Assembly (NCBI GenBank): GCA_903864935.1
Contig: CAIPHT010000017.1
Coordinates: 16,096-80,095 of the forward strand
Direction of reading: 5' to 3'
Origin: Candidatus Vogelbacteria bacterium
GTDB lineage: Bacteria > Patescibacteriota > Minisyncoccia > Phycocordibacterales > XYD1-FULL-46-19
Length of the DNA: 64,000 bases
Position numbers and translations under genes: made by a program
The notes under the pieces: model-generated
Told to the model about the DNA's origin: nothing
The model's input: the letters and a program-made list of their open reading frames with translations, nothing else
The model's database searches: none
Shown: positions 12,129-54,940 of the stretch, piece by piece
Layout of the letters: each line of letters opens with the position of its first letter
Numbering within the stretch: the stretch's first letter is position 1

Positions 12129-12221
12129 AAAATATGTTAAACCAAAAGTTTAAAAAAATTATTAAGAAGTGCTATAATTAAAAATAATAATCCCGTCAAG
12201 CGGGAGAAGAAAATAAAAAAC

Positions 12222-28900: not shown

Positions 28901-31900
28901 TTCGACCGATTTGATTTATTCAGTCAATAGATATGGAGTCGCTGGCGGATTCCAAATGTTCGGTGATCACAGCATGCTTATCGGCAGTACCGGGAAAGAA
29001 TTTCAATATCAAGGTAGCACCGGCTATGTCGGTATCGGCACTACCTCACCATCACAGTTATTGACCGTTGGGAATAACAATCAATTTACCGTCACGTCTG
29101 GGGGAGCGGTTAGTGCCACGGGCGGATTCTCGACCAATGGCACTGTCAACGCTGGTTATTATCAACTTGGCGGTATCCAAGCCTTTGCTTACTCTGGGAC
29201 GCAGGTCCAAGTTTCGCCGGCCGCCTATTGGCAATCCCTCGGCTTATTTACCAATGGTTCAGAAAAAGTTTCTATTTTAAGTAATGGCAACGTCGGTATC
29301 GGTACCACTACCCCATGGGCCAAACTTTCTCTTCAGAATTCCTACGGCTCCACAGGGGCTTTGCTTGATATTGCCACTACCACCTCGTCGGCTTTTGCCA
29401 CTTCATCGGTCTTCTATGTGGGGTCCAATGGTTACGTCGCGGTGGGAACGAACAATCCAACCAATCTTTTTGAAGTTGATGTTGGTGGTGTTTATAAGGT
29501 AGCAGTAAATGCAGGAGGAACATTTGTTGCCAAGAATGACGTAATGACCAACCTGATTGGTGATCTTGGCTCAAAATATCAGAAGATAATGCTTGATCAA
29601 GCAAACGGTTTGAGATTCTTTGCTGGCTCTTCGGCTTCCAATGAGTATATGAGAATCAACCAATCTGGCCTCGTCGGCATCGGCACCACTTCACCAATGG
29701 CCACTCTGTCTGTCATGGGCACTTCAACCTTGCCGGGCGTTAATCCTTTTGTTGTCGCTTCTTCGTCTGGTGTTCAACTTTTAACCGTGTTGCCGAATGG
29801 TAATGTGGGGGTGGGGACAACAAATCCGAGTGCTAAATTAACAGCATTTTCCGATGCAACATCCGGCGCAATAGGAGACACTCTAAGAGTATTTTCTGGT
29901 CTAGGGTCTGTAGCATTAAAAATATATTCAACCACAAATGGTGACGGATTGATCATCAATCAGTATTATCAGGGTTCAGGGCAAAATTATATCAGAATGG
30001 CGGATATCGTGTCTAACTCAGGAGATACTTCAGAAGCACAAATTCGGTTTCTAACTAAGCCAAACTCAGCAAATCCTAGCGAAGCAATGCGAATTACTGG
30101 CAGTGGTTTTGTTGGTATCGGTACTACGAGCCCCGCTCTTAAATTGCATGTATTAGGCACTATTGGTCTGCCGGCTACTTCTGGTACGGCCCAGAATGGT
30201 GTCGCAAGATTCTCGGTTGACCCAGCCGGAACGGGTTATGTTTTGGATATGGGTGTTCTCTCCGGTGCCTCATGGTTGCAGACAACTATTGCCGGTGACC
30301 TAGGCACTTATGGTTCTTTGCTCTTGAACCCACGCGGGGGCAATATCGGTATTGGCACAGCTACTCCGGGTAAGACCTTAGATGTGAATGGTGATATCAG
30401 AATAGGGGTAAATAATAAACTTTATTTGGTCTCAACAAATGATAGTAATTATCTATCATATAATGAGTGGAACACTGCCTCCTCGATTGGTCTTAAGTTT
30501 TTAATTAGTGGCAACGAGAAGATGAGAATTGATGCTTCCGGCAACGTCGCCATTGGCACCTCAACCCCTTGGGCCAAGCTCGCCATTCAGAATTCCTACG
30601 GCTCCACTCAGGCCTTGTTTGATATAGCGACGACGACTTCATCAGCCTTCGCCACCTCGTCGGTCTTCTATGTTGGGGCGAATGGCAATGTGGGTATCGG
30701 CACGGCGAACCCTGCCAAGAGACTGTCAATAACGGATGCGAATACGGCCTTAAGCGCGTATGCTTTAAATATTAGTGCTTATAAGAGCTCTGGCAATTTC
30801 TCTGGACTCTCGTTTGGCGATGATAGTGGCGGAACTGTTTGGGGCGCAATTAAGTTCAAAGCCGATACCAATAACGACAGTTCTTTGAGATTCTTGACTT
30901 GGGACGGGACGACTGGCGGCACAGAGAGATTAACAATCAAGGGAGTTGGGGGCTCAGTTGGTATTGGTTCTACTTCTCCTATTTCTACCCTCTCTGTTAA
31001 AGGTGTTGCCGGCTATAATCCATTCACCATTTCTTCTTCCACGGATGCTTCGCTCCTCACTATCTTACAGAATGGCAACGTCGGTATTGGGACAAGTAGT
31101 CCGGCGACTTCTTTGGATGTTTATAGTAATACGACGGACAATATCTTCCGTTTGATGACGGGGCCCGCTATTGGGGTGATGCCCACCTTTACCATGTCAC
31201 AAGGGGGAACCAACAATTTTCAAATTGGCCGAGCGCTAACTCTTTTCAACCCTAACCTTGGGGGTATCGCCGCCGAGAATGATGTCGGTTTCTCTGCCCC
31301 GACCAACCGAAGCCTCTATTTTGGTACCGCCGCTAATCCTTACTTAGCAATAAGAAATGGTGGCAATGTGGGTATTGGCACGACGAGCCCCCCTGATTTA
31401 CTAACTGTTTACCATGATAGCTCCGCAGACACCGTCTTAAATATTTCTAATAATAGCCTCAGTGCAAGTTACGGGAGTTCGGTTTTGAAGTTCAGCCAAG
31501 GAAACGGTGAGGCAGCCTATATCTCTTGGAATCAGGCAAACCAGCTTTTTAAATTTGTAGCTGGACGAAATAATTTTAATAACTTCTCTTTCAATACTGT
31601 TACAGGAGGAGCTGAGGTCTCAAGATTATTTATACAAAATAATGGTAACGTTGGTATCGGCTCCACTTCACCAATGGCCACCTTGTCAGTAATGGGCACC
31701 TCGACCTTGCCGGGCGTTAATCCTTTTGTCGTCGCTTCTTCATCCGGTGCTCAACTTTTGACGGTGTTGCCAAATGGCAAAGTGGGCATAGGGACAACCG
31801 GACCTGTTACTAAGTTATCTTTATCGGATGCCACGTCCACTTTTCTAACTATTTCTAATACTAACAATGCTAGTGGTGTGGTCGGAGGAATGTTGTTCTC

Positions 31901-34900
31901 AAGTCAATACGAATCAACGTATAGAAAAGGGGCTATCTCTTTTGTGCGGACTGAGAGTAACGCAAACAGGGGTTATCTCTCTTTTGCCTTGGATGCCAGT
32001 AACACCGCTAGTAACGTTGACTCTGATATTATCGGTAATACAAAAATGGTCATTGACTATACTGGCTCTGTCGGGATTGGAACGACGGCCCCAGGGGCAA
32101 AGTTAGATATTGTTGGTGTAAATAATCAATTAAGAATTACTAATGCAGACGGAACTAATTATTATAGTATCGGTAGGAGTAATTCAAACGGGTATTTAGA
32201 GTTTAGTTTAACTGGTGCTAATTCTTATGGATATACATTCAATGGTGGCCTCGTCGGTATCGGTACCACTTCACCAATGGCCACCTTATCAGTAATGGGC
32301 ACTTCAACCTTGCCGGGCGTTAATCCTTTTGTCGTCGCTTCTTCATCCGGTGCTCAACTTTTGACTGTATTGCCGAGTGGTAACGTGGGAATTGGTATTT
32401 CTAATCCTGCTCAGTTACTGGATGTTGAGGGGAGAATAAGAGCTAATACCCTTGAGTTTGGCGCTAACAATAGTTATCTCGGTTATCTTGATCAGGGGGG
32501 TCTAGTCTTTAACTCTTCGGGTGTGGGGACTATCTATAATGCTTACTCTGGTTCCAACCTCTTCCTTTCTAGTAACGGAGGCAACGTGATATTGGGGATG
32601 AGAGATGACGGACTCGCTTCTTATAATGGCAAGGTGGGCATCGGCACTTCAACTCCTTTTGCCAAACTTGCCATTCAGAATTCCTTTGGTTCCACTCAGG
32701 CCTTGTTTGATATTGCGACGACCACTTCATCCGCCTTCGCCACCTCGTCGGTCTTCTATGTTGGGGCGAATGGTAATGTGGGTGTTGGTACTAACCTCCC
32801 GACAAATAAATTTACCGTCAGTGGGACAGTTGACCCTGTGCGCTTCCATAGCACCGGTCAAAATGTCTTAGAAATTTCTAGTACGGGGAATAGTGAGAAT
32901 GGTGTTAGATTCACTCGTAGCGGCGATGCCTCTTACTGGACCTTGGGGATGGATAATAATTCGACTAATGACTTTTATCTTGGCTCTAGCGGTTTTGGAA
33001 CAAAGTATCTAACTGTTTTGCAAACAAACGGCAACGTTGGTATTGGCACCACCACACCAATCTCCACTCTCTCTGTTTCCGGTACCGCGGGCATTAATCC
33101 GTTTACCATTGCTTCATCCACCGGCCAGACAATGCTAACAATGCTTCAGAATGGCAATGTGGGAATCGGTACAGCGAATCCAATTTCGCCTCTAACTATT
33201 TCTAAAAATTCTGCCACTACGGCAACTTGGTTAAATTTGGATAATACTGATGTTGGGGGCGCGGGGGTAATGTTGGATTTTACACAAGGCGGAGGGATGA
33301 TGGGACGAATAAATAGTTACTATGCTGGTAATGGGTTATGGAATCTTGGTTTGGGGACAAATGCTAACTCAGGATTGCCGGTGTTGTTTGTGACAAACGG
33401 CCGAGTGGGAGTAGCGAGCACTACGCCACAATCCACCTTCGCTGTCTCTGGTATCGCTGGCACAAATCCTTTCACTATTGCTTCTTCAACTGGCCAGACA
33501 ATGCTAACAATGCTTCAGAATGGCAACGTCGGTATTGGTACAGCGGCGCCAAGTTATCCATTGGATGTTGTCGCAAATTCAAGTGGATCAAATTTGAATC
33601 TTATAAACAACCCCAGTAATCTTTCGGGGATTAGATTTGGGGTAAATGGAACGCCTGCCTCTTCTTACACGACGATTTTCGCTGATGGCAGATCTACCGG
33701 TTATTTGTATATTAAAACTAATGATATTGAGCGATTCCGCATCGACTCAAATGGCAACGTCGGTATTGGCACGACAACCCCAAGTGATATCCTAAGTATC
33801 CAAGGTAATTCATCAATCCTTGGTAATACTCCTTCCGTTGGACTTAATAATACGGATTCTGGAGGTAGATTGTGGAGTATTTATTCTTCTGGTAACAGTA
33901 ATTCTATTGGCGGTGGTAAGTTTAGTATTTTTGATAAAACAGCCAGTTTAAATAGACTCGTTATTGATTCCTCTGGCAATGTGGGGATTGGTACTTCTAG
34001 CCCACAGTCAATTCTTCATCTCTATGGTGCGACAGTTAAGCCTCGACTCGAGCGTTCGGTTAGTTCGGGCGCGGCAGTTTTGGACTTCTGGCCATCGGGT
34101 ACTTTGAGTCAGGCTAATTCTGTTTGGAGTTTTGGTATGGTTGAGAATAATAGTAATTTCTCGGTCAATCAATGGACTGGCTCGCAAACTTTGCAGAGAC
34201 TTCTTGTTGATACGAATGGCAACGTTGGTATTGGTACGACGAGTCCTGCGGCGACTTTGGATATAGAGATAAATAATACATCAGGAGCTTCAACCATTCC
34301 TGTTTTTAGAGTAGGAAATTTGGCGGGTACTCCAGCCTACTTTGGTATTACATTGGGCGGTTCGGCGAGTGGTTGGGAAAATATCGCACAGCTCCAACTT
34401 AATGGGACTAAATACATATCTTTAGATGGTGGGCAATCCACAGTTGATTTACATAAAAATATGTTATTGGATAATAATGTATCTTTTCAGGCATCTTCCA
34501 ATGGATTTAACAACTTTGTTCCTTATAACACAGCTTTTTCAAATGGATTCTCTTTTGATACAGGCTCAATATTTAGCTTCCAGACAAATGGTAGTCCGGT
34601 TATGACAATATTAAATAATGGCAACGTCGGCATTGGCTCCACCACCCCGCTCTCCACCCTCTCAGTCTCCGGCACGGCTGGCACCAACCCATTCACAGTC
34701 GCTTCCTCCACTGGCAACGCGATGTTGACGATGCTTCAGAATGGCAATGTGGGAATCGGTACAGCGAATCCCGGGAACAAGCTTCATATTGTAGGTGGGG
34801 GTCTCTCTTTGGGTGATAGCGTTTCTGCCTTAACAACAAGGGGATTATTTAATATTCACGACTCAAGTAATGCTCGAATGAGCATTACTAAAGCAAGCGT

Positions 34901-37900
34901 TGGAGGGTTTAGATTTGATGTGACTGGGTCTGGAAGTAGCTACAGATTAAATATCGGAGATGATAATGTTGCTAATAGTGGCGATACTAATGCTTGGATG
35001 ACCTTTACTAATCTCGGCCTCGTCGGCCTCGGCACCACCACCCCTAACGCCAACCTTAATATCTTCGGTACCACCAACACCTTCATGCGGGTAGCCTCTT
35101 CAACCAATCAGAATATCTTCGTCATTGATAATAATGGCGACGTCTCCATGTCTGGTGGCTTGGCTCTCACTGGTCTCACTGGCAACATCATCACCTCAAC
35201 CAATGTTAAGCAAGCCATCCAAGACTTAGACACCAGCCTATATAATCAACAGAACAATACTAAGGAGATCACTGGTTTCCCTAACCGCACCGACACGAGC
35301 ATTGCCTTCACTAGCGGCACCCGCACCTTCACCATCACCGGCACCAACTTCAAGCTCTACTCAGTCGGCAAAGAATATACCAAGAATACCGAATCCATTG
35401 GTCTCCCTAACACTGTCGGCCTCTACTATATATACTACGACAAGACCAGCCACAACTTAGCCACCAGCACCACCGCTTGGGGTCTCACCGATGGCACCAT
35501 CCAAGTCGCCACGGTCTATTGGGATGGCACCACTGGCGTGTTGGGCGAAGAGCGTCACGGGGTCACCATGGATGGCGCCACTCATGAGTATCTCCACCAT
35601 ACTGTCGGTACCAGATACCAGTCTGGCTTAGCTGGTACCTTCAATTCCGACAGAACCTTCTCCATCACCGCTGGCGCGGTGGATGACGAAGATATCGAAG
35701 AGACAATCCCACTCACCACGACTGGTCGTATTCTCTACCACAATGGTCCAACCAACTTCACTTATACTTCGGCCACCTCCAGCTTCTTCGATGAGACTTG
35801 TACGGGCGGAGTTGTCTGTTACGACAATGCGGGCACCAAGGCGGCCGTCACAAACAACAACTATGTCGCCTATTGGATCTTCGCCACCAATGACCCGACC
35901 ACCCCAATCTACTCAATGATGGGTCAACGCCAAGACACCAGCCTCGCTAATGCTCAAGCTAATCAGACCTATGGCAGCCTCACACTTGGGACCCTCCCAT
36001 TTGCTGAGATGAAGTTACTCTATCGTGTCATTGTCAGGAACAACGCCGGCAGTACCTTGTCCGTCGATGACTATCGCTCCGTCTCTAACCTCCCATCGGG
36101 CACCTACCTCGCTACTTTGCACAGCAGTTTGACTGGTCTTACTAATGACGACCACACTCAATACGCTTTGCTCGCTGGTCGCGCTGGTGGTCAGAGTTTA
36201 ATTGGTGGCAATACCGCCGGAGACAATCTCACCTTGTTTGGCAACTCCATTGACTACGGCAATATCTTCACTCAACCTTATGGGGGGAGCTTAACGGTGG
36301 GCACCACTTCTACTATCACCCTCGCCAACACCTTATTCAATGTGGCTTCGTCTACTGGTGCCAATTACTTAACGGTGTTGAAGAATGGGAATGTTGGGAT
36401 TGGGACGAGTAGTCCAAGCACAAATTTTTACGTACAGGGCAATTCGGAGGTTACGGGGTATCTTATTGCTGGAGGGGCTTATTCCAACGCCGATACAGTT
36501 AGAATTTCTCTTGATGAATATACTGACCGAAGTAGAATTGCGACAGCTGGATATACCAACAAATATTATGCGGGAAGGGCGACCGGAGTAAATGGCGAAC
36601 ACCGTTTCTATGTTGGAGCCAATGGCTCATGGAATGAAGCACTAAGTATTCTATCTTCTGGTTCCATCGGTATTGGCACTACCACCCCTCTCGCCAAGCT
36701 TGATCTCACTGGGACCCTTGGGTCACTGGCCGATATCTTCAACGTCTCCACGAGCACGGGGGCCAACTTAGTCTCAAGTCTCTTCCGCATTACGGCCAAC
36801 GGCGATGTGTCTATTGGCGGAGCTAATCTTGGTAATTACAGCACCACCACCATCAATAATGACTTAGTGGTTGGTGGTGGCGCTCTCACTTACTCTTCAT
36901 CCACTGGCATTGTCTCAATTGATAATGTGGAGTTGGGAGCCACCTCCTTCCCAACTGATGCCGGGATGGTTAGCTGGATGGATATGCCTCTCACCTCAGG
37001 TACGGCTGCCGGTGTCGGTGTGGCTTATACTGCCAACCTCGCGGGCAACCCTATCCTTTCCATCGCTGGTATCTCTGATGGTAATGGCGACCTCTCGAGC
37101 TTTGGTGTTGGTATTGGTACCACCAGTGTGCCTGCCTTCCTTACAATCCAAAATGCTTCGACCACCAGCAATATGCCTCTGCTGCTTTTTGCTTCGTCTT
37201 CTGGATCTTCAATCCTCTCTATTTCTAATAATGGCAATATCGGGATTGGGACGAGTACCTCAGGTGGGACACTCCACGTAATTAATCCTACTGGTATAAC
37301 CTCAGCTAAGTTCCAGGCTGGCACTGGTAACACAATCACTAATTCTTTGTTAGAAATCTTACCTAATAGTGGGCTTAGTAAAATTTATTTCTCCTCTGAC
37401 AATAATGGGCAAAGAATGGTTTATCTTGATACGACGGGTTCACCAAGAATGAATATCGATAACTCGTCTATTGTCCAAGGTTCTAATCGTTTAATCAATT
37501 GGACATCTGGCGACATGAACGCCTCCGCTGATATTGGTCTTTCTCGCGGGGCCGCTGGTAAATTATATGTCGGCAATGGGGCAACCTATGACTATACCGG
37601 AGGATTAATCGCTGGGTCTGTGGGCATTGGCTCCAGCACTCCCGTGGCCAAGCTTTCCATCCATGATAATTCGGGACTCGCGGCATCTAATCCACTCTTC
37701 ACCATTGCTTCATCGAGCGCCGCGGGCACGGGCACTACCACTTTGTTGACGATACTCGGGAATGGCAACTTGGGCATTGGCACCGCTTCGCCGAATTCTC
37801 CACTTCAAATTTCTAACACTACCGCTACTACCAAATTTATTCGAGTGGGGACCAACTCCAATCCTTCCACCACAGCCAATGCTGGCGGTATAGTCGTGGA

Positions 37901-39824
37901 TGTTAACGGTGGTGGTGGGGTCTATATGGGAGACTCAGCCAACGGTCTTTATGGTAAGTATGAGGCCTATGGTGGGAAGATAGGTATCGGCTCAATGTCC
38001 AATCATCCTGTTGGTTTGTTTACAAATAGTGTTGAGCGATTAAGTATCACCAACGGTGGTTTGGTTGGCATTGGCACCACGACACCATCGGCGAAGTTCT
38101 CTATTCAGAATGCCTTCGGCGCGACTGGGGCTCTGTTTGATATTGCCACCACCACTTCTTCAGCTTTTGCTACCTCGTCACTCTTCACCGTGTTGGCCAA
38201 TGGTAATGTGGGTATCGGGACGAATAATCCGACATTGATATCTGGAGGAAGTGGTTTACATATTAAAAATAGTAACGGTGAAGGGAATCTTAGATTGGAT
38301 AGCACAGTTGGTAATAATCAACAGGTATTTGAATTAAGGACCGAAGGAACAGTGACAGGTTTTGAATTATACGATATTACTAATGGAAAAAGTAAAATAT
38401 GGGTTAAACCGAATAATGGTGACATAATGCTGATGAACAGCAACGTTGGCATTGGCACCACTTCACCAATTGCTAAATTATCAGTGATTGGAAATACTTA
38501 TCTAGGAGGCAATCTTACCGCCACAGGCACTCTTGATGTTGCCGGTACCACAACGATACCTTTTGGTTCCAAGATTGGCGACGTTGCGGGTAGTAATTAT
38601 GTGACCGTTGAGAATAGGCCATTCGATGGGACCTATGCCAGTGGCAGTATCCCTTTGATTAAATTCAACTCCCTGTTCCCTGGTGACTCATCGGTGGGTG
38701 GGATTGATAGGAGTTTGATAATTACGGCTAGTGGTGGTGTCTCGCCTTCACTTCAATTTGCCGCTGAAGATTTTGCCGATACCGCAAATGTCGGAAAAAT
38801 TATTTATGATACCCATAATAATAGAATGGTTGTTAGTGATATTACTGGTACGGGCGCTGTTAATTCAGTTGATTTGTTCATCCCTAATGGTAATGTGACA
38901 ATTAACGGGCTTAATAGTAACGGCGCCGTCTATTCGAATGGCGGTTTGCTCACCAACACCAATCCATCCTCTCGTGATTACAAGAAGAATATTATTGACA
39001 CTAATCTTAATCTTGACGCTCTACTCGGCTTGCAAGTTAAATCATTTGTTTGGAAGAATAATGGCCAGAGTGATTTTGGTCTGATTGCCGAGGAGGTTAA
39101 GAGTGCTTTGCCTGAGCTCTATGTGGATGATGGCAAGACCAAGGGTTATCGCGCCGACCACTTACCATTCTACTTATTGCAGATTGCTCAGCGCCAAGAA
39201 GGGGAGATTAATAGTTTGAACGAGCAAATCACCTCATTGCTCGGCGCCAGCACTAGCTCACCAATTACTCTCACCGAGGGTGGTCTGATTGATCCAAGTT
39301 TACTCGCCGTCTCTAGCTCAAGCCTCGCGGTGGCGACAACAACAGCCGAGACTTCTACTTCTACCGCTTTCTCAATTATCTCTGATCGGCTGCTTACGGG
39401 TGTCGGTACTGTCAAAGAGCTTGTCTCTGAGCGCATGGTGGCGATGGTGGGCCTCTTCGATTATATCAAGGCTAAGGTGGTCGAGACGGATACGCTTAAG
39501 GTCCAGAAGGGGATGGAGATTAAAGATTCGGCCACTGGCGATATCTACTGTGTCTTGATCGTGAATGGCGAATGGCAGAAGACGAAGGGCAAATGCTCGG
39601 ATGTCCCTGTTGCGCCTACCACGCCAAGCACGCCTACTTCTCCCGCTCCCGCTGACTCTTCTTCTGGCTCTTCCACCCCTTCGACTTCCGGTGATACTAG
39701 CACCAGCACACCTAGCTCTGATACTCCGGTAATTACCACTGATTCTTCTGTCCCTCCTGCCCCAACCGAACCAGCCCCAACTCCTGATCCTGTCCCAGCT
39801 CCAGCCCTCGAACCAGCTCCCTAA
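25983..39824 (+). CDS. Giant secreted fibre protein (4613 aa) with about 44 NGNVGIGTTxP-x3-L repeats, a tail-fibre-like central region, a C-terminal intramolecular chaperone (peptidase S74 / endosialidase-chaperone type) domain and a Pro/Thr/Ser-rich tail.
   Basis: N-terminal hydrophobic anchor (GFFGVLFLIVFSFILTPTFSAFA). The motif recurs every 60-130 aa. The C-terminal segment NTNPSSRDYKKNI..LDALLGLQVKSFVWKNNGQSDFGLIAEEVKSALPELYVDDGKTKGYRADHLPFYLLQIAQRQEGEINSLNEQI matches the S74 autoproteolytic chaperone pattern (SDRRLKENI..VSY.WK.....GFIAQEV..V.PE...). Confidence 0.85.
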   Translation: MFSVWQNFVSRKGFFGVLFLIVFSFILTPTFSAFAVTGVPATMSYQGRLANSAGDLVGGAGAIYSFKFSLWDNATVGAGSQVWPAGAPTAVNATVRQGLFNVNIGDTGSGYPDALNYDFSQNNKIYLQVEVSSDGLTYETLGPRQPITSAPFAQVAGQVSGSAVSTMGGLVVNGGVTSTHSTTTGSGYFGTALGLAGQYINSWSDLATYLPVVVGWSTSSDSTNFATLLAGTTTDALAEGVNHKYYSNVYVADYISSSSTLASSLNYWAKSGSDLSYTAGNVGVGMSPVYKLDVNGAIRANGSNIIAGGGSVFGWIFGSNGLSNVDTTLNTSAGYNILFKNGTSEQMRISSGGLVGIGTTTPTQRLDVLGNIQVNGTSSYMINGVNLAFGSTTKQNYFFGAAGNSNITGSYNTGVGKGALVTTTSGGYNTAVGRQSLYLNTIGSSNTALGNNALQSVSAGDGNVGLGADAGQYELGSNSFYLNNIDQNDTAGDKAYSLLYGKFSGVAGSLTNQFLTVNGKLNIGTTTMASTFNIQGISGVSALNIASSTGAPMFTVASNGNVGIGTNAPAYPLDVNGNAKVNGVLTVLNGTSYGILAGLSKLNLYDNAGNASYQNSYTGGWGFGIGNISPTYTLDVKGSGAAGGIFNVASSSGVSALMVSNNGNVGIGTNAPSTGLHLYDNTSTANKALMRLETTAGSGQNAGIRMIGGASNADWMIGTNRADLAGAGDSLLFYKSLGTAGTKMVIQDNGNVGIGTTSPATALHVYGATPEIRLDASGSVNAQYTLNQNNVKYGLLGLSLATDQLALGSAVGDVVLRANAGQKLMLSANGSGASSTMTLLNGLVGIGTTTPSSLLHLYGSSANPLILERNSSLANVGIQFKDTSGSWYAGKGTGTGNFAIGTDANLGASTIFNIQSNGNVGIGTSSPANPLTVADKAQIGTSITNTSQSASLVVQGTASRAAMYIQGDASRSASTDLIYSVNRYGVAGGFQMFGDHSMLIGSTGKEFQYQGSTGYVGIGTTSPSQLLTVGNNNQFTVTSGGAVSATGGFSTNGTVNAGYYQLGGIQAFAYSGTQVQVSPAAYWQSLGLFTNGSEKVSILSNGNVGIGTTTPWAKLSLQNSYGSTGALLDIATTTSSAFATSSVFYVGSNGYVAVGTNNPTNLFEVDVGGVYKVAVNAGGTFVAKNDVMTNLIGDLGSKYQKIMLDQANGLRFFAGSSASNEYMRINQSGLVGIGTTSPMATLSVMGTSTLPGVNPFVVASSSGVQLLTVLPNGNVGVGTTNPSAKLTAFSDATSGAIGDTLRVFSGLGSVALKIYSTTNGDGLIINQYYQGSGQNYIRMADIVSNSGDTSEAQIRFLTKPNSANPSEAMRITGSGFVGIGTTSPALKLHVLGTIGLPATSGTAQNGVARFSVDPAGTGYVLDMGVLSGASWLQTTIAGDLGTYGSLLLNPRGGNIGIGTATPGKTLDVNGDIRIGVNNKLYLVSTNDSNYLSYNEWNTASSIGLKFLISGNEKMRIDASGNVAIGTSTPWAKLAIQNSYGSTQALFDIATTTSSAFATSSVFYVGANGNVGIGTANPAKRLSITDANTALSAYALNISAYKSSGNFSGLSFGDDSGGTVWGAIKFKADTNNDSSLRFLTWDGTTGGTERLTIKGVGGSVGIGSTSPISTLSVKGVAGYNPFTISSSTDASLLTILQNGNVGIGTSSPATSLDVYSNTTDNIFRLMTGPAIGVMPTFTMSQGGTNNFQIGRALTLFNPNLGGIAAENDVGFSAPTNRSLYFGTAANPYLAIRNGGNVGIGTTSPPDLLTVYHDSSADTVLNISNNSLSASYGSSVLKFSQGNGEAAYISWNQANQLFKFVAGRNNFNNFSFNTVTGGAEVSRLFIQNNGNVGIGSTSPMATLSVMGTSTLPGVNPFVVASSSGAQLLTVLPNGKVGIGTTGPVTKLSLSDATSTFLTISNTNNASGVVGGMLFSSQYESTYRKGAISFVRTESNANRGYLSFALDASNTASNVDSDIIGNTKMVIDYTGSVGIGTTAPGAKLDIVGVNNQLRITNADGTNYYSIGRSNSNGYLEFSLTGANSYGYTFNGGLVGIGTTSPMATLSVMGTSTLPGVNPFVVASSSGAQLLTVLPSGNVGIGISNPAQLLDVEGRIRANTLEFGANNSYLGYLDQGGLVFNSSGVGTIYNAYSGSNLFLSSNGGNVILGMRDDGLASYNGKVGIGTSTPFAKLAIQNSFGSTQALFDIATTTSSAFATSSVFYVGANGNVGVGTNLPTNKFTVSGTVDPVRFHSTGQNVLEISSTGNSENGVRFTRSGDASYWTLGMDNNSTNDFYLGSSGFGTKYLTVLQTNGNVGIGTTTPISTLSVSGTAGINPFTIASSTGQTMLTMLQNGNVGIGTANPISPLTISKNSATTATWLNLDNTDVGGAGVMLDFTQGGGMMGRINSYYAGNGLWNLGLGTNANSGLPVLFVTNGRVGVASTTPQSTFAVSGIAGTNPFTIASSTGQTMLTMLQNGNVGIGTAAPSYPLDVVANSSGSNLNLINNPSNLSGIRFGVNGTPASSYTTIFADGRSTGYLYIKTNDIERFRIDSNGNVGIGTTTPSDILSIQGNSSILGNTPSVGLNNTDSGGRLWSIYSSGNSNSIGGGKFSIFDKTASLNRLVIDSSGNVGIGTSSPQSILHLYGATVKPRLERSVSSGAAVLDFWPSGTLSQANSVWSFGMVENNSNFSVNQWTGSQTLQRLLVDTNGNVGIGTTSPAATLDIEINNTSGASTIPVFRVGNLAGTPAYFGITLGGSASGWENIAQLQLNGTKYISLDGGQSTVDLHKNMLLDNNVSFQASSNGFNNFVPYNTAFSNGFSFDTGSIFSFQTNGSPVMTILNNGNVGIGSTTPLSTLSVSGTAGTNPFTVASSTGNAMLTMLQNGNVGIGTANPGNKLHIVGGGLSLGDSVSALTTRGLFNIHDSSNARMSITKASVGGFRFDVTGSGSSYRLNIGDDNVANSGDTNAWMTFTNLGLVGLGTTTPNANLNIFGTTNTFMRVASSTNQNIFVIDNNGDVSMSGGLALTGLTGNIITSTNVKQAIQDLDTSLYNQQNNTKEITGFPNRTDTSIAFTSGTRTFTITGTNFKLYSVGKEYTKNTESIGLPNTVGLYYIYYDKTSHNLATSTTAWGLTDGTIQVATVYWDGTTGVLGEERHGVTMDGATHEYLHHTVGTRYQSGLAGTFNSDRTFSITAGAVDDEDIEETIPLTTTGRILYHNGPTNFTYTSATSSFFDETCTGGVVCYDNAGTKAAVTNNNYVAYWIFATNDPTTPIYSMMGQRQDTSLANAQANQTYGSLTLGTLPFAEMKLLYRVIVRNNAGSTLSVDDYRSVSNLPSGTYLATLHSSLTGLTNDDHTQYALLAGRAGGQSLIGGNTAGDNLTLFGNSIDYGNIFTQPYGGSLTVGTTSTITLANTLFNVASSTGANYLTVLKNGNVGIGTSSPSTNFYVQGNSEVTGYLIAGGAYSNADTVRISLDEYTDRSRIATAGYTNKYYAGRATGVNGEHRFYVGANGSWNEALSILSSGSIGIGTTTPLAKLDLTGTLGSLADIFNVSTSTGANLVSSLFRITANGDVSIGGANLGNYSTTTINNDLVVGGGALTYSSSTGIVSIDNVELGATSFPTDAGMVSWMDMPLTSGTAAGVGVAYTANLAGNPILSIAGISDGNGDLSSFGVGIGTTSVPAFLTIQNASTTSNMPLLLFASSSGSSILSISNNGNIGIGTSTSGGTLHVINPTGITSAKFQAGTGNTITNSLLEILPNSGLSKIYFSSDNNGQRMVYLDTTGSPRMNIDNSSIVQGSNRLINWTSGDMNASADIGLSRGAAGKLYVGNGATYDYTGGLIAGSVGIGSSTPVAKLSIHDNSGLAASNPLFTIASSSAAGTGTTTLLTILGNGNLGIGTASPNSPLQISNTTATTKFIRVGTNSNPSTTANAGGIVVDVNGGGGVYMGDSANGLYGKYEAYGGKIGIGSMSNHPVGLFTNSVERLSITNGGLVGIGTTTPSAKFSIQNAFGATGALFDIATTTSSAFATSSLFTVLANGNVGIGTNNPTLISGGSGLHIKNSNGEGNLRLDSTVGNNQQVFELRTEGTVTGFELYDITNGKSKIWVKPNNGDIMLMNSNVGIGTTSPIAKLSVIGNTYLGGNLTATGTLDVAGTTTIPFGSKIGDVAGSNYVTVENRPFDGTYASGSIPLIKFNSLFPGDSSVGGIDRSLIITASGGVSPSLQFAAEDFADTANVGKIIYDTHNNRMVVSDITGTGAVNSVDLFIPNGNVTINGLNSNGAVYSNGGLLTNTNPSSRDYKKNIIDTNLNLDALLGLQVKSFVWKNNGQSDFGLIAEEVKSALPELYVDDGKTKGYRADHLPFYLLQIAQRQEGEINSLNEQITSLLGASTSSPITLTEGGLIDPSLLAVSSSSLAVATTTAETSTSTAFSIISDRLLTGVGTVKELVSERMVAMVGLFDYIKAKVVETDTLKVQKGMEIKDSATGDIYCVLIVNGEWQKTKGKCSDVPVAPTTPSTPTSPAPADSSSGSSTPSTSGDTSTSTPSSDTPVITTDSSVPPAPTEPAPTPDPVPAPALEPAP

Positions 39825-39829
39825 TTTGT

Positions 39830-39842
39830 CTAGGCCTTGCCT
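39830..39842. repeat. 13-nt remnant of the REP family-2 palindrome (CTAGGCCTTGCCT) between the giant gene stop and the LamG gene
   Basis: Exact match to the core of the 42886 copy. The chance of this at this length in 64 kb is negligible. Confidence 0.6.
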
Positions 39843-39869
39843 GGACAAAACCAAGTGCTTAAAATATTT

Positions 39870-42077
39870 ATGAATAAAATTTTATTTTTTATAATCTCTA
39901 TTAGTTTAGGCTTGACCTTTTCTCTTCCCGCCTTTTCTCTGGCCGCACAAATTGATTCCGCCCCCACTCGTGGCCTTGTTGGCTACTGGTCTTTCGACGA
40001 AGGGACCTCTACTATTGCCCATGATTATTCAGGGAATAAAAATAATGGGACTTTGGTGGGAACTCCTAAACCTAGTTGGGTTGCTGGTAAAAATGGTAAA
40101 GCTTTAATTTTGAATGATGCGACGCAATATGTTGATGCGGGGACAGGTAATACGGGTGTTTATAATCCGGGTCAAACCTTTACTTTGTCTGTTTGGGTAT
40201 TACCAACTGCAACCGGTAAAGCTAGTGGAGCTGATATAATTCAAAAACAAACAGGCTCTGCTTCACCGTATGCGAGTTGGTCACTTGATTTTAGTAATAA
40301 TCAGGAATTTGGGCTTGGCTTAGGTGGGACAAATAATACATTTTATGATTTCAGGGCAAAAACGCCAGCCGTTGCACTTAATCAGTGGTACCATGTTGTG
40401 GCAACTTATGATGGCACGACGATAAAAACATATTTAAATGGGGCCCTGTCTAATTCCGAAGTTTTCCCACTGACTATTAAATACACCAGTGACAAACTTG
40501 TTTTTGGATCATGGTCTTATGGTCAGGCAACTAATTTATTTGTCGGTAAAATAGATGAAGCTCGCATCTACAACCGTGCCCTAACAGCCGGCGAAATTTC
40601 TGCCCTTTATCAAACCAGCGCCACCAAGATTAATCCAGCACCGCCGATCAATAAAGCTGGTCTTAATGCTGGACTCATTGCTTATTGGACGATGGATACT
40701 CAAGATATTAATTGGACGACGAGCCGGATGATTGATAAGTCGGGGAGTGGTAACACGGGCACACTTGGAGCCTTTACTAGTACGGCCTCGGCTCTGGGTA
40801 AATTGGGACAGACGCTCAAGTTCAATGGTACGAGCAATTATCTGGTCAATAGTCAGGTGGTTAATATCACCAAGTCCACCGTCTCGGCGTGGGTCAATTT
40901 GCCGAGCTACCCCACGAGCGGGAGCTTGGGCATGCTCGCTGGTTTTGCTCAAGGTAATAATTCTGATACTCACGACAAGGACCTCTTCATCGATGGGAGT
41001 GGTAAGGCCTATTATTACACTTACACTGGCCAACTCAAGTGCACCACTGAGCCGACCAATGCCATTCCGCGCAATTCTTGGCACTTGGTCACCGGCACTA
41101 ACGATGGTGTTAACAATTATCTTTATATTGATGGACAGCTGGCCGGTTCGGTCTCCGCCGGTAATTCGTATGCTGGCTATGGTTCGGCCAACCTGCTTGT
41201 TGGGGGCAAAGTTAATTATTCCGGCTCGGTTGGTTGTGGTACCGGCAACACCACGCGCACCTATCTCCCGGCGAATACCAAGATTGATGATGTGCGCATC
41301 TACAACCGCGCGCTCTCAGCGAGTGAAGTTAAAACTTTATATAATCAGAGCCAGGGGACAAAAGTGAATGCTCCTCCGACTCTCAAACCTCTTGGTCTCG
41401 ACTCCGGCCTTGTCGGTTATTGGACAATGAACAATCAAGACATTAATTGGAAGACGATGACGATGGTAGACAAATCCGGCAAAGGCAACACTGGCACGCT
41501 CACCAACATGCCTACCTCCACTTCCCCCGTCGCCGGCAAAATTGGTCAGGCGTTGAAGTTTAATGGGAGTAGTTACGTTGATACTAATAGTGCAAGTCTT
41601 GGTCTAACAAATAGTAGTGATCTGACCGTCTCTGTTTGGTTTAAAAGAGCCGATTCGGATGTCGGCCAGCATCATTTGGTTAGTGATTATAATAAAAATA
41701 CGCCAACGGGTTGGATGTTTATGTTCGAATCTAACTACTTATGGATAAAAAATTATCAAACGAGCGCAGTGAACGCAAGAATGTCTGCATCCGTCTCAAC
41801 CATTATTGATACGAAGTGGCATCACGCAGTCGGGATAATAAAAGGAGATGGAACAGATACAAAATTATATATAGACGGCATCCTCCAAGGGAGCAGTTTT
41901 TTTGGTGGTGCGGGAGGCATTGTGACTCAATTGAACATGGGAAGCGGGAATGTAACTATCGGGAGACAGTCCTTGCCTTCTGAAAGATTTTTCAATGGCT
42001 CTATCGACGACACCCGCATCTATAATCGCACCCTTACCCCCGCCGAAGTCCTCCAACTCTACCGCCAAGGAAAATAA
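39870..42077 (+). CDS. secreted protein with three tandem LamG / ConA-like lectin-glucanase domains
   Basis: Signal peptide MNKILFFIISISLGLTFSLPAFSLA. Three repeats each start (L)VGYW(S/T)(F/M)D and end D(E/D)xRIYNR(A/T)L(T/S)..E(I/V)..LY, the hallmark of the LamG_3 / ConA-like superfamily. The ATG at 39870 is chosen over the upstream TTG. Confidence 0.75.
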   Translation: MNKILFFIISISLGLTFSLPAFSLAAQIDSAPTRGLVGYWSFDEGTSTIAHDYSGNKNNGTLVGTPKPSWVAGKNGKALILNDATQYVDAGTGNTGVYNPGQTFTLSVWVLPTATGKASGADIIQKQTGSASPYASWSLDFSNNQEFGLGLGGTNNTFYDFRAKTPAVALNQWYHVVATYDGTTIKTYLNGALSNSEVFPLTIKYTSDKLVFGSWSYGQATNLFVGKIDEARIYNRALTAGEISALYQTSATKINPAPPINKAGLNAGLIAYWTMDTQDINWTTSRMIDKSGSGNTGTLGAFTSTASALGKLGQTLKFNGTSNYLVNSQVVNITKSTVSAWVNLPSYPTSGSLGMLAGFAQGNNSDTHDKDLFIDGSGKAYYYTYTGQLKCTTEPTNAIPRNSWHLVTGTNDGVNNYLYIDGQLAGSVSAGNSYAGYGSANLLVGGKVNYSGSVGCGTGNTTRTYLPANTKIDDVRIYNRALSASEVKTLYNQSQGTKVNAPPTLKPLGLDSGLVGYWTMNNQDINWKTMTMVDKSGKGNTGTLTNMPTSTSPVAGKIGQALKFNGSSYVDTNSASLGLTNSSDLTVSVWFKRADSDVGQHHLVSDYNKNTPTGWMFMFESNYLWIKNYQTSAVNARMSASVSTIIDTKWHHAVGIIKGDGTDTKLYIDGILQGSSFFGGAGGIVTQLNMGSGNVTIGRQSLPSERFFNGSIDDTRIYNRTLTPAEVLQLYRQGK

Positions 42078-49602: not shown

Positions 49603-50166
49603 ATGAAGTTTAGTTTAAAACTTAAGCCAAGCGAATTGGAATCAGGCGAGCTGAGTATACCTCTTGCTGTTCTCGCCGTAATCGCTGTCTCTGGTATTAT
49701 GGCAACAGCTTCTGTGGCTCCTGGAGTGATGCCTCTTCTTAAATATTTAAAAAAGAAAAGAAAAATATATCCCTCGCATATAAACTCCTGCCTAGATCGG
49801 CTGATTAAAAATGGGTTAATTCATAAAAAGGATGGTAAATTGTCTTTAACCACAAAAGGTGAACTACGCTTATCAAAATATCAAGAAGAACTTTCCCCAA
49901 GCAGAAGAAAATGGGATAAAAAATGGCGAATTGTGATTTTTGATATTTGGGAAAAGAGTCGCAAGAAGAGAGACTTTTTGCGGAATGAATTATCCGACTT
50001 CGGTTTTGTTAAATTGCAGAATAGCGTTTGGGTGACCCCTTATGATTGTGAAGAGTATGTTAATTTATTAAAAACGGATATCGGGATTGGTCGGGGAGTT
50101 GTTTATATAATAGCCGATAAAATTGATAACGAACTCGTTCTCAAAAAGATATTTGGTTTAGTTTAG
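49603..50166 (+). CDS. PaaX-like winged-helix transcriptional regulator
   Basis: wHTH-like SCLDRLIKNGLIHKKDGKLSLTTKG, followed by WDKKWRIVIFDIWEKSRKKRDFLRNELSDFGFVKLQNSVWVTP. That second segment parallels the WDG.W..L.......R..L...L...GFG.L..S....P segment of PaaX family proteins. Confidence 0.5.
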   Translation: MKFSLKLKPSELESGELSIPLAVLAVIAVSGIMATASVAPGVMPLLKYLKKKRKIYPSHINSCLDRLIKNGLIHKKDGKLSLTTKGELRLSKYQEELSPSRRKWDKKWRIVIFDIWEKSRKKRDFLRNELSDFGFVKLQNSVWVTPYDCEEYVNLLKTDIGIGRGVVYIIADKIDNELVLKKIFGLV

Positions 50167-52714: not shown

Positions 52715-53575
52715 ATGGCCCTATCTAAAGCCGAAATTTTACAAGCTAGTCGGGAGCGTGACCGGCATAAGCGGCAGGGAGCCGTTTTTATAGGAGTGGG
52801 TCTTATTATTCTTATTGTTGGTGTCTTTTTGATTCTCCTCAACCTTTCTTTTTTGCGGGTTAACAATGTGAAGATTATTGGCCAAACTAGCGCCGACCCA
52901 GATACGATCAAAGAGTTCGTGAATAAACAATTGACCGGACGGTATCTCGGTCTTGTCCCCAAGAGTAGTATTTTCTTTGTCACTAAGAGTGTTCTCGTTA
53001 ATGGGGTTTCGCGAGAATTCCCTGGCTTGGCTAAGGTGAGTATTACTTGGCCTGACCTCAACACTTTGGCTATTCTCATTGTTGATCGTGAGTCTAAAGT
53101 GCTCTGGTGTGTGGATGGTGAGAAAGATAAGAGTTGTTATTACTTATCACCTGAGGGGCTGGCTTATCAAGAAGCGCCAAGTTTCTCCGACGCCCTTTTT
53201 ATTGAACTGCATACTAAGCAACCTTTGAAAAAAATAGGGGAGAAGGTGATTGATCCAAAAACTTTAATCAGAACGACAGCCTTTCTTAATTTTATGAAGA
53301 GCTCAATGACCTTATGGCCTAAGTCGGGATTACTTTTGTCGCGCGCCGAGGTTTATTCGCAAAATGATTTTATTGCTTTTCTCTTCGACCCTGCTAATCC
53401 CGCTTGGCAAGCGCAAGTTCTCTTTAATGTTGATCGTGGGGCCAATAACTTGATTACCGACTTCCACTCCGTCCTTAAGAACGACAAATTCCAGTCCGAT
53501 TGGAAGGCGGGCAACGGCGGGCTCAATTATCTTGACCTCCGCTTCCCTGGGAAGGTTTTTTACAGGTTCCGCTAA
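52715..53575 (+). CDS. ftsQ: FtsQ/DivIB-like cell division protein with a TM helix and a POTRA domain
   Basis: Short cytoplasmic N-terminus, TM (AVFIGVGLIILIVGVFLILL), then a POTRA-like pattern VNNVKIIGQT....I........G....V.......L......V..V.I.WPDLNTLAILIVDRE. Confidence 0.5.
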   Translation: MALSKAEILQASRERDRHKRQGAVFIGVGLIILIVGVFLILLNLSFLRVNNVKIIGQTSADPDTIKEFVNKQLTGRYLGLVPKSSIFFVTKSVLVNGVSREFPGLAKVSITWPDLNTLAILIVDRESKVLWCVDGEKDKSCYYLSPEGLAYQEAPSFSDALFIELHTKQPLKKIGEKVIDPKTLIRTTAFLNFMKSSMTLWPKSGLLLSRAEVYSQNDFIAFLFDPANPAWQAQVLFNVDRGANNLITDFHSVLKNDKFQSDWKAGNGGLNYLDLRFPGKVFYRFR

Positions 53576-53590
53576 AGGCGCGAGGCTTTT

Positions 53591-53680
53591 CAAAATTACT
53601 AAGCCTCGCTTAACTGCCGGGCTACAAATGAGGGGATTTTTGACATTGACAGGGAGGTATTGTTAGTGCTATAATTAAAG
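53591..53680 (+). promoter_or_regulatory. Promoter module copy 1: conserved 45-nt upstream block, then TTGACA, an 18-nt spacer and TGcTATAAT
   Basis: caaaattactaagcctcgcttaactgccgggctacaaatgagggg...ttgacagggaggtattgttagtgctataat. About 88 percent identical by eye to copy 2 at 54531-54623. Confidence 0.65.
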
Positions 53681-53739
53681 TAGAAAGAATAAACGGCTAC
53701 TGGCAAAGCCAGCAAGCTTTTGAAAAGGAAGGAGCTGCT

Positions 53740-54357
53740 ATGAAGGATCCTCTTACCATTCTCTTTGTTGAGGATGGCGATGGACACTTTGCTGACCTGC
53801 AGCAGATGCTGGCCATCGAGATTCCTCGCTTGCCGATCCGGGTCAACGCGCTTTTTGCTCGCACCCAAGTCGAAGCCGAGGCCCTGCTAAATCAGGCTGA
53901 TGCCGTGATGACCGATGTTTTCTTTCCCGCCGAAGTCGGAGACAAAGAAGCCGGTAACGGTCTGGCAATTGTCGCGCTCTGCTTGGAGAAGAAAAAACCC
54001 GTGGTTTGGATCACAAGCACCTATCATCATGGGACGAAGACTGACCCTCTCAACGAATGGGGGTGTAAACACGGCCTCAAGATGTTCGACTCCTGCACTC
54101 CGGACTCAACTAGTGAGAACGATACAGAGGGCGATCATAAGCCGTGGAAGTCAGCCCTTTTGGGACTCTTCTATGTGATTGTGGCTGTCGAAAGCGGGGC
54201 GGCGATCTTCAAGGATGGCTGCATTATTCAGAGCCGTAACGGTCATGGCCTTCATCACTGCATGTACGATATACATTACTATTGCAGTGGGGAAGGAGAC
54301 CTCTCTCGGGAGCCGGTTCTGATCAAGATGAAGGAAGAGGGGTTCCCCCTCGACTGA
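53740..54357 (+). CDS. stand-alone CheY-like receiver-domain protein with an additional C-terminal region of unknown function (GC-rich, SD-led)
   Basis: AAGGAG RBS. ILFVEDGDG..L.., then a hydrophobic beta-strand followed by the Asp of AVMTDVFFP (candidate phospho-acceptor). The conserved Thr is in VVWITST. Confidence 0.5.
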   Translation: MKDPLTILFVEDGDGHFADLQQMLAIEIPRLPIRVNALFARTQVEAEALLNQADAVMTDVFFPAEVGDKEAGNGLAIVALCLEKKKPVVWITSTYHHGTKTDPLNEWGCKHGLKMFDSCTPDSTSENDTEGDHKPWKSALLGLFYVIVAVESGAAIFKDGCIIQSRNGHGLHHCMYDIHYYCSGEGDLSREPVLIKMKEEGFPLD

Positions 54358-54530
54358 ACTCTTTCCACAATACTTTCCGCCCGCAGTGCCGCCTGGCTCT
54401 GTCGGGCGGTTTCTGTTTATCTCAATTATATGTGAAGCCCCGAGTGCTTCACATCATCCGACCGTGCCCGCCAAAGCTTTAGTGTCAGCGGCGGTTGTTT
54501 TACTGAACGAGCCCTCGCTTGAATCCCCAG

Positions 54531-54623
54531 CTCAAAATTACTAAGCTTCGCTTAACTGCAGGGCTACAAATAAGGTGATTTCTGGTCTTGACAGAGAGGG
54601 GTCATTGGTGCTATAATTAAAAG
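54531..54623 (+). promoter_or_regulatory. Promoter module copy 2 (TTGACA, 18-nt spacer, TGcTATAAT) upstream of the small gene at 54675
   Basis: ctcaaaattactaagcttcgcttaactgcagggctacaaataaggtgatttctggtcttgacagagaggggtcattggtgctataat. Confidence 0.65.
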
Positions 54624-54674
54624 AGAGTAACTTTGTATCGTCTAGTGCTTCTAAACTTGAGACAGGAGGTCTAT

Positions 54675-54872
54675 ATGGACAAGATTTACGAGGACAATGA
54701 CTTGATTGTAAGTGTTGATTCAGACCTTGGGGTTGTTGTTGAGTTGAAATCTCGCGACAATGTCGGTGTCAGGATTGACCCCACCCTGGGGTCCTTGGTT
54801 GTCCAGGTGAGAGCTGGGTCGGAGATGGTTGTCTCCGGGAAGGGGATGACGGAAATCCGAGCCTTGACATAG
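54675..54872 (+). CDS. small hypothetical protein (65 aa), GC-rich, AGGAGG RBS
   Basis: MDKIYEDNDLIVSVDSDLGVVVELKSRDNVGVRIDPTLGSLVVQVRAGSEMVVSGKGMTEIRALT. Followed by a strong terminator. Confidence 0.45.
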   Translation: MDKIYEDNDLIVSVDSDLGVVVELKSRDNVGVRIDPTLGSLVVQVRAGSEMVVSGKGMTEIRALT

Positions 54873-54883
54873 AAGACTTTTTG

Positions 54884-54940
54884 TCACCGCCGGACGACCA
54901 GCGAGAAATCGCTGGCTCGTCTGGCGGTTTTTCGTTTTTA
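54884..54940 (+). terminator. long imperfect hairpin (about 19 bp: caccgccggacgaccagcga-gaaa-tcgctggctcgtctggcggt) plus a T-run
   Basis: read directly. Confidence 0.7.

Follow-up and report, generated by a model that had tools for sequence, protein, structure and literature searches.

Here we describe a tandem pair of predicted single-gene expression cassettes, built around two copies of one promoter module, in a 64,000-nt stretch of the genome of a Candidatus Vogelbacteria bacterium (contig CAIPHT010000017.1; the whole stretch is hereafter termed the window). The two cassettes, whose open reading frames (ORFs) are designated ORF1 and ORF2, lie between a gene for an FtsQ-like protein of 286 amino acids (aa) and a gene for a 131-aa membrane protein. 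The nearest named relatives are metagenome-assembled genomes assigned to Candidatus Uhrbacteria and Candidatus Paceibacterota, and one related locus, L001, which carries an ORF1 homologue (P0002), enters most of the comparisons below. The features of the locus, all on the + strand, are as follows:

53576..54932 (+), full extent of the insertion with its two expression cassettes, bounded by the FtsQ-like 286-aa gene and by the ancestral promoter that belongs to the 131-aa membrane-protein gene
53580..53609 (+), hairpin GCGAGGCTT-12 nt-AAGCCTCGC (-17.9 kcal/mol, z -3.1), with its right arm reaching into the start of block A
53590..53645 (+), upstream block, copy A, at about -92 to -37 from the predicted start site
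53646..53675 (+), predicted promoter A, TTGACA, 18-nt spacer, TGc-TATAAT (12/12 consensus, TG present)
53676..53739 (+), leader A with Shine-Dalgarno (SD) sequence AGGAG (53730-53734), not common to copy B
53740..54357 (+), ORF1, 205 aa, divergent stand-alone receiver (REC) protein with a C-terminal extension of ~55 aa (profile, hhalign and Foldseek)
54377..54418 (+), intrinsic terminator A, stem 54377-54409 plus U-tract (-25.3 kcal/mol, z -5.2)
54419..54531 (+), unique 113-nt spacer 5' of module B, with a perfect 9-bp hairpin and a terminator-like relic
54532..54587 (+), upstream block, copy B (repeat search and alignment)
54588..54617 (+), predicted promoter B, TTGACA, 18-nt spacer, TGc-TATAAT (12/12 consensus, TG present)
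54618..54674 (+), leader B with SD AGGAGG (54664-54669), unrelated to leader A
54675..54872 (+), ORF2, 65 aa, an orphan by its self-match only, predicted as a small all-beta protein by a single-sequence model
54886..54938 (+), intrinsic terminator B, stem 54886-54928 plus U-tract (-39.8 kcal/mol, z -8.0), its 3' half homologous to that of terminator A

A repeat search returned the two modules as one family of direct repeats, 53590-53684 against 54532-54626, which align without gaps over 95 nt at 83% identity; by BLAST, the two copies are 84.4% identical over 90 nt (E 2.8e-13). An initial annotation of this DNA, made from the sequence alone, had already noticed the duplication and located it correctly, but had placed the identity by eye at ~88% where the aligned modules give ~84%, and had taken the conserved block to be ~45 nt long where 56 nt are measured upstream of the -35 hexamer. 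Its reading of TTGACA, an 18-nt spacer and TGcTATAAT in both copies agrees with our consensus matches, and sites of the form TTGACA-N16-19-TATAAT number 3 in all across the window against 0.03 expected. In a gapped alignment the similarity sets in sharply at TCAAAATTAC and stops a few bases past the -10, near the expected start site; beyond the module and the terminator tail, blastn, tblastn and tblastx found no similarity between the cassettes. The annotated picture of one promoter module shared by two genes, with divergent leaders and ribosome-binding regions and a separate terminator for each gene, thus holds on alignment and folding, and the two genes are non-homologous. The distance from SD to ATG, read directly, is 5 nt for both ORFs. 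Leader folding was considered as the cause of leader conservation and rejected, its RNA structure being non-significant (z -1.7 to +0.4).

Within the block, the distal 50 nt are 92% identical between copies A and B. Its proximal part reads CTACAAAT.AGG.GATTT(T/C)T, in which short A and T tracts are broken by G-rich runs, and the block also holds a 5-bp palindrome, TAAGC-N3-GCTTA, that is not kept in L001. A 39-nt pattern drawn from the block has exactly two matches in the 64-kb window and none in 100 shuffles, and a fuzzy search (up to 14 mismatches in 50) found no further copies in the window or at any unrelated locus. Exact scans for TCGCTTAACTGCNGGGNTACAAAT across genome, metagenome and viral contig collections gave 0 matches; these collections evidently lack both the source genome and L001, so the scans have no bearing on copy number. 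A distant blastn search of phage records found no match, and Rfam at a permissive E-value, applied to the region and to an inverted-repeat element of L001 described below, returned only chance-level matches to eukaryotic microRNAs and small nucleolar RNAs. As a separate observation on promoter signals in this genome, TGnTATAAT followed by TAAA occurs seven times on the + strand of the window (at most one mismatch; positions 12170, 40232, 44561, 51411, 53667, 54609 and 54974) against 0.7 expected, which suggests a genome-typical promoter plus discriminator signature.

The cassettes also resemble each other at their 3' ends. The 3' halves of terminators A and B align as CTGGCTC(T)GTC(G/T)GGCGGTTT..GTTT with a score of 30, where shuffled sequences averaged 12.6 and reached 22 at most, and no third such site exists in the 64-kb window; imperfect direct repeats of this sequence therefore flank the inserted cassette B. 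Terminator A itself (54377-54417) is identical to L001 at 41/41 positions, and several ORF1 homologues in other contexts possess similar CCGCCCGC...GGCGGGTTT terminators. The spacer between the cassettes carries a perfect 9-bp hairpin at 54430-54454 and, at ~54470-54500, a terminator-like relic that ends in GGCGGTTGTTTT and resembles the terminators of ORF1 homologues at two unrelated loci (L003 and L005). Module B may have followed another cassette in its donor context. No homology was found between the spacer (54419-54531) and L001 or any other locus, and the DNA preceding module B has none to the additional 128 nt of L001 either. One further terminator-like structure, a hairpin plus T-run (CTTCCCTGGGAAG GTTTTTT) at 53542-53561, falls within the final codons of the 286-aa gene and is kept in L001, with similar sequence present in L022, L023 and L024. 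It may exist because the encoded residues (…LRFPGKVFY…) are constrained, or it may be a terminator that overlaps the stop codon.

Gene order in relatives documents how the locus arose. In L001 the order is SerRS, the 286-aa gene, ORF1, the 131-aa gene and a ClpB-like gene, syntenic with the window; the ORF1 cassette is present there and the ORF2 cassette is absent. Further relatives, fetched via orthologues of the 286-aa gene, have an empty site: in L019/L020 (79% identical), L021 (70%) and L023 (82%) only 33-60 nt separate the 286-aa gene from the 131-aa gene, and this interval holds TTTTATACACAGTC and then TAGTATAAT. The TAGTATAAT promoter of these relatives is the same one that lies 3' of the ORF2 terminator in the window. 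Since three relatives have the flanking core genes adjacent, both cassettes are insertions, and comparison with the empty sites places the inserted stretch at ~53576-54932; the earlier suggestion that these genes were acquired is thereby upheld. On a tree of the flanking gene, L001 with its cassette is sister to the empty L023 and L019, and the window groups with L024, which has a cassette-type left junction, so that the presence of cassettes is patchy among close relatives. The remaining ORF1 homologues (L003, L005, L013/L017, L015, L016 and L018) lie in unrelated neighbourhoods and, where a promoter is recognisable, have their own promoter of the TTGAC(A)-17/18-TGnTATAAT type. Among variable sites, matches of module B to L001 are as frequent as those to module A, and module B has the longest private branch; it is not a very recent local copy of A and may have come from another lineage or locus. 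Elsewhere in the window, between the TopA and DprA genes, lies a gene (49603-50166) whose 187-aa product has a central domain of PaaX type (Cas2-like); its counterpart in L001 is a gap of 415 nt with no called gene, and it may be another variable insertion.

Comparison with L001 also provides a measure of constraint on the module. At 4-fold degenerate sites, the window and L001 are 31-47% identical in four flanking genes, near saturation, and 55% identical in ORF1, whose protein is the least conserved of the five compared (67% identity). Against this background, the block is identical at 50/56 positions (89%), the -35 to -10 segment at 29/30 and leader A at 60/64; module plus leader, 159 nt in all, are 93% identical. 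As a control, the promoter region of the 131-aa gene is identical at only 34/53 positions (64%). A second and independent comparison, of copy A with copy B, shows 4/50 mismatches in the distal block versus 6/15 in the spacer (Fisher p=0.007). A further 4/6 mismatches fall just upstream of the -35, and the hexamers and TG are identical. The distal 32 nt of the block differ at 2-3 positions in every pairwise comparison. From the conservation to L001 against near-saturated synonymous sites, and from the A/B mismatch contrast, the block is a constrained cis-element, kept about as tightly as the core promoter elements in both comparisons. UP elements are A/T-rich tracts at about -40 to -60 that contact the RNA polymerase alpha subunit, and such an element cannot explain conservation of the block out to -92. 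The block is probably a regulator or UP-type site that gives the two genes common control. The regulator site shared by both genes that the initial annotation had proposed is upheld in so far as the block is constrained beyond the duplication itself; binding by a regulator is our inference, and no regulator was found. When window 53740-54420 is compared with L001 6001-6680, the ORF1 protein is the fastest-evolving of the five, yet the non-coding flanks of ORF1 are 93-100% identical. Within ORF1, a 40-nt segment (54021-54060, encoding YHHGTKTDPLNEW) is 97% identical to L001, synonymous sites included.

Part of the block has a second association. In L001, a 158-nt intergenic element (5713-5870) sits between the FtsQ-like gene and the promoter module; 23-nt inverted repeats (5713-5735 and 5848-5870), 91% complementary to each other, enclose 112 nt with internal hairpins, and the element folds far more stably than its shuffled versions (z -5.5). 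Its left arm matches the reverse complement of window positions 53587-53609 perfectly, and the first 23 nt of the block form the right arm of the inverted repeat in L001 and L024. In the latter, the left arm lies at 1050-1072, after the 286-aa gene. In the window only 30 nt remain, as the 9-bp-stem hairpin at 53580-53609, which is consistent with a remnant collapsed by deletion between CGAGGCTT direct repeats. In the window as in L001, the start of the block and the SD region are additionally connected through an inverted repeat of 10 nt, CTTTTCAAAA/TTTTGAAAAG. The L001 element has no Rfam match; no other copies were found in the 168 kb of the window and its relatives, and no target-site duplication or transposase was seen. 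The element may represent either a structured 3' untranslated region (UTR) or a miniature inverted-repeat element. Because the first 23 nt of the block double as a repeat arm, part of the block may serve, or derive from, the inverted repeat. What had been named in advance as fatal to the notion of a regulatory block, that it be a fragment of a larger repeated mobile sequence, is thus borne out as regards a 23-nt arm of an inverted-repeat element, but there is no sign of a multi-copy or mobile one.

The first of the two genes served by the module encodes a receiver protein. On its own, ORF1 gave nothing significant in Pfam, NCBIfam, PHROGs, PADLOC or PDB sequences; it is below the Pfam gathering threshold, and Response_reg (PF00072) is absent even at E<=1. 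Seven close homologues were found, and a profile built on the family retrieved 509 cluster representatives (50% identity, E<=1e-3) among 1.8 billion, mostly of ~200 aa. In an alignment of 60 members, E11, D12, D59, P63, G67, T92, D117, K134 and W136 are kept in at least 90%, and the consensus TSTYHHG follows directly after the conserved Thr. The family profile matched solved receiver domains in the PDB at E 3e-7 and below, and Pfam Response_reg is matched by 28/60 members (E<=0.01). An hhalign comparison with E. coli CheY gave E 2.4e-6 and paired E11-D12, D59 and T92 with D12-D13, D57 and T87. An AlphaFold (AF2) model of ORF1, with a mean predicted local distance difference test score (pLDDT) of 87, has alternating strands and helices that correspond to a (beta-alpha)5 CheY-like fold, and Foldseek against the PDB gave mostly receiver domains as top matches (E about 1e-3, TM up to 0.67 on the target). 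K134-P135, the candidate Lys-Pro of beta5, is invariant in the seven close homologues and is preceded by a low-confidence loop (120-131); the profile and CheY alignments stop short of K134. By family profile, CheY alignment, conserved residues and model fold, ORF1 is a divergent single-domain response regulator without a recognisable output domain, as the initial annotation had proposed; the acidic pair following beta1, the phospho-acceptor Asp closing beta3 and the Thr closing beta4 are in place.

In common with single-domain regulators of the CheY, DivK and Spo0F type, ORF1 shows the fold, the acidic pair, the Thr and a phospho-acceptor Asp with xxxP..G behind it, and lacks a recognisable output domain; its conserved Lys-Pro may correspond to theirs. 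Unlike them, it is under any Pfam threshold, and its family has the TSTYHHG motif, a variable loop of ~15 residues before K-P and the ~55-aa C-terminal extension. A further difference is that no kinase is nearby in any of six genomic contexts of the family. As previously annotated, the window yielded no histidine kinase, here among ~30 ORFs scanned with two giant ORFs left out; nor was one found beside the ORF1 homologues in L001, L003, L005, L013 or L016. The giant ORFs, both on the + strand, span 15-12128 (4037 aa) and 25983-39824 (4613 aa), and a Laminin_G_3-rich protein of 746 aa (39837-42077) follows the second. As for the family at large, TSTYHHG, D117 and (H)K-P-W behind the variable loop serve as its hallmarks, and Response_reg misses many members, ORF1 included. 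Cell-division or cell-wall genes lie near ORF1-family genes in three different contexts: 3' of the FtsQ-like 286-aa gene in the window and L001 (52715-53575; weak POTRA FtsQ similarity, E 0.002), 1-3 kb from FtsZ and FtsA in L005 (3958-6405), and between MurB-like genes and a POTRA FtsQ gene in L016 (366-4573). This neighbourhood might indicate a DivK-like role or might be coincidence.

ORF2 is an orphan. Among 5.8e9 proteins it matched only itself, and searches of Pfam, NCBIfam, PHROGs, PADLOC and PDB sequences gave nothing significant. A single-sequence model is all-beta at low confidence (pLDDT 63), and a fold search with it gave no match at E<0.1. The GC content by codon position is coding-like, at 0.57/0.34/0.63 for ORF2 versus 0.60/0.37/0.62 for ORF1. 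Descent of ORF2 from ORF1 or from other window sequence was considered and rejected, BLAST within the window having found no similarity. Overall GC is 53% for ORF1 (62% at third codon positions, GC3) and 51% for ORF2 (GC3 63%), against 46% for the window and a core-gene GC3 of 48-49%; both genes are GC-rich and SD-led, as annotated, with a moderate enrichment.

The explanation we prefer, with moderate confidence, is promoter reuse: a constrained promoter region of ~90 nt would serve two unrelated accessory genes under common control, with the block as a DNA site on which proteins dock. On this reading the insertion between core genes consists of two independent monocistronic cassettes in tandem on the same 'chassis'. 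Each cassette comprises a block of ~56 nt, an almost perfect extended -10 promoter of the sigma-70 type, a leader and SD of its own, a single ORF and, as its terminator, an intrinsic one with a long stem. The ~90-nt promoter module would have been reused before a second, unrelated gene, and its 50-nt upstream block would be under purifying selection, most likely as a DNA-level docking surface with an UP-like proximal part (ACAAAT...GATTTTT) and a distal site for a DNA-binding protein. ORF1 and ORF2 would be transcribed strongly and under the same control. The repeat with its boundaries, the consensus motifs of promoters and terminators, the insertion, the conservation and the REC affiliation are demonstrated, and from there we infer promoter firing, factor binding at the block and co-regulation of the two genes. 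Several points weigh against promoter reuse under common control. Only three independent versions of the block (A, B and L001) are at hand, and apart from TAAGC-N3-GCTTA neither a dyad nor a direct-repeat arrangement stands out clearly in them. No candidate for the regulator emerged, both the start sites and the activity of the promoters are predicted, and the block is absent upstream of the ORF1 homologues in L003, L005, L013, L015, L016 and L018. Finally, part of the block's conservation may serve its other role, as an inverted-repeat arm.

Other explanations account for portions of the same evidence. The block may simply have hitch-hiked with a reused promoter, such that only the -35 and -10 (perhaps with an UP element) matter and the distal block is functionless. 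Such capture would predict a duplicated segment that ends almost at the predicted start site, as is observed, and would fit both the lack of obvious operator-like symmetry and the ORF1 homologues elsewhere that do without the block. We nonetheless regard it as unlikely in view of the 2-3 pairwise differences in the distal 32 nt against 6/15 in the sequence-neutral spacer (A vs B), and of the near saturation of neutral sites and 64% identity of the control intergenic region between the window and L001. A second view, that the block or its distal 23 nt is the end of an element like a REPIN or a miniature inverted-repeat transposable element (MITE), so that the likeness of A and B reflects the element rather than a regulator site, draws on the strongly folding L001 element with its 23-nt repeats, on the same left arm in L024 and on the apparent internal deletion at copy A. 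The repeat arm, however, covers only 20-23 of the ~90 shared nt, so that the promoter and some ~35 further nt of the block fall outside; copy B has no left arm, no further copy of the element was found in the 168 kb of the window plus relatives, and neither a target-site duplication nor a transposase was seen. This view seems to us somewhat less probable still. The module might instead belong to a transcript, whether an antisense RNA or the upstream gene's 3' UTR or small RNA, and not work as a promoter element in the DNA. This idea accommodates the hairpins that copy A and L001 form with upstream sequence and the 10-nt inverted repeat that reaches the SD region. It is made highly improbable by the absence of these upstream partner sequences from copy B, by the lack of an Rfam match and of significantly structured leaders, and by the presence, twice, of a 12/12 consensus promoter with TG against an expectation of 0.03 in the window.

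Two further proposals concern the cassettes as units. Module and terminator could be recombination anchors, either homology arms or an att-like site, of a cassette-exchange platform to which cargo is added in tandem. Both ends of cassette B are homologous to A and its interior is unrelated; the flanking imperfect repeats of the terminator 3' half, the patchy presence among close relatives with clean empty sites, the recurrence of similar terminators at ORF1 homologues elsewhere and the DprA gene nearby also fit, as does module B, which is about as far from A as from L001 and has the longer branch, as if imported. Set against these, scanning ~30 window ORFs revealed neither a recombinase nor an integrase, a single such event is observed, the terminator similarity could be convergent, and 113 nt of unique DNA precede module B. 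We judge this proposal doubtful, and equally doubtful its fuller form, in which the shared module and terminator are a 'landing pad' for tandem single-gene cassettes in probably naturally transformable reduced-genome bacteria, loaded through recombinase-independent homology anchoring or through an unrecognised site-specific system; were it true, each newcomer, even an orphan like ORF2, would be expressed and co-regulated at once. Least credible of all is a functional pair, of the toxin-antitoxin or signalling kind that the initial annotation had suggested; adjacency, similar composition and the common module speak for it. We reject the toxin-antitoxin idea because the genes form separate transcription units, each with its own promoter and terminator rather than an operon, because L001 keeps ORF1 without ORF2, so that the two are not co-inherited, and because PADLOC, Pfam, NCBIfam and PHROG gave no match to a toxin or antitoxin family; ORF2, moreover, has no homologue anywhere.

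Promoter reuse as a phenomenon has precedents. Putative mobile promoters and promoter reuse in prokaryotes were reportedly described by Matus-Garcia, Nijveen and van Passel in NAR in 2012. The published operational definition asks for non-paralogous genes of a single genome whose -150 to -50 regions share a stretch of 50 nt or more at 80% identity or more, and most families so defined are pairs (PMC3575422). The module lies at -150..-56 for ORF1 and -143..-49 for ORF2, with 84.4% identity over 90 nt, and the two genes are unrelated by blastn, tblastn and tblastx; by that definition the pair is a putative mobile promoter, its promoter function being predicted. The likeness extends to the lack of a known insertion sequence or Rfam match and to the occurrence as a pair. 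Differences are that the module here is constrained across species, that the terminator is also shared, that both genes are recent insertions and that the host is an uncultured Parcubacteria-type bacterium of the candidate phyla radiation (CPR). Miniature inverted-repeat elements that bear promoters are known as well, among them Correia, ERIC and REPIN (PMC3575422). The short, strongly folding, inverted-repeat-bounded element beside or overlapping the module in L001 and L024, with its remnant in the window, resembles these; unlike them, it has the promoter outside the inverted repeat and shows no multi-copy distribution, target duplication or cognate transposase. As small autonomous one-gene units between conserved genes, the cassettes also invite comparison with integron cassettes and phage morons. 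Integron cassettes are usually promoterless, and morons carry their own promoter and terminator, as the units described here do; unlike either, these have no integrase, attC-like site or prophage context.

The phenomenon of promoter reuse is thus a known one, and what is unusual at this locus is the cross-species constraint on a non-coding module, together with a promoter-terminator chassis common to unrelated cargo. Promoter reuse has so far been documented mostly through statistical catalogues in cultured bacteria, and here a single case can be dissected, with its insertion history visible as an empty site, one cassette and two cassettes. Constraint on the reused non-coding module demonstrably exceeds that on the surrounding proteins, and an orphan gene would be wired to the same control as a signalling protein. 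A large REC subfamily of about 500 clusters (50% identity), which Pfam recognises only in part, also comes to light here. Transcription signals and regulation in CPR/Parcubacteria are almost unstudied, and the block is a concrete candidate cis-regulatory element for these bacteria, just as the module and terminator together are predicted to be a strong natural promoter-terminator pair.

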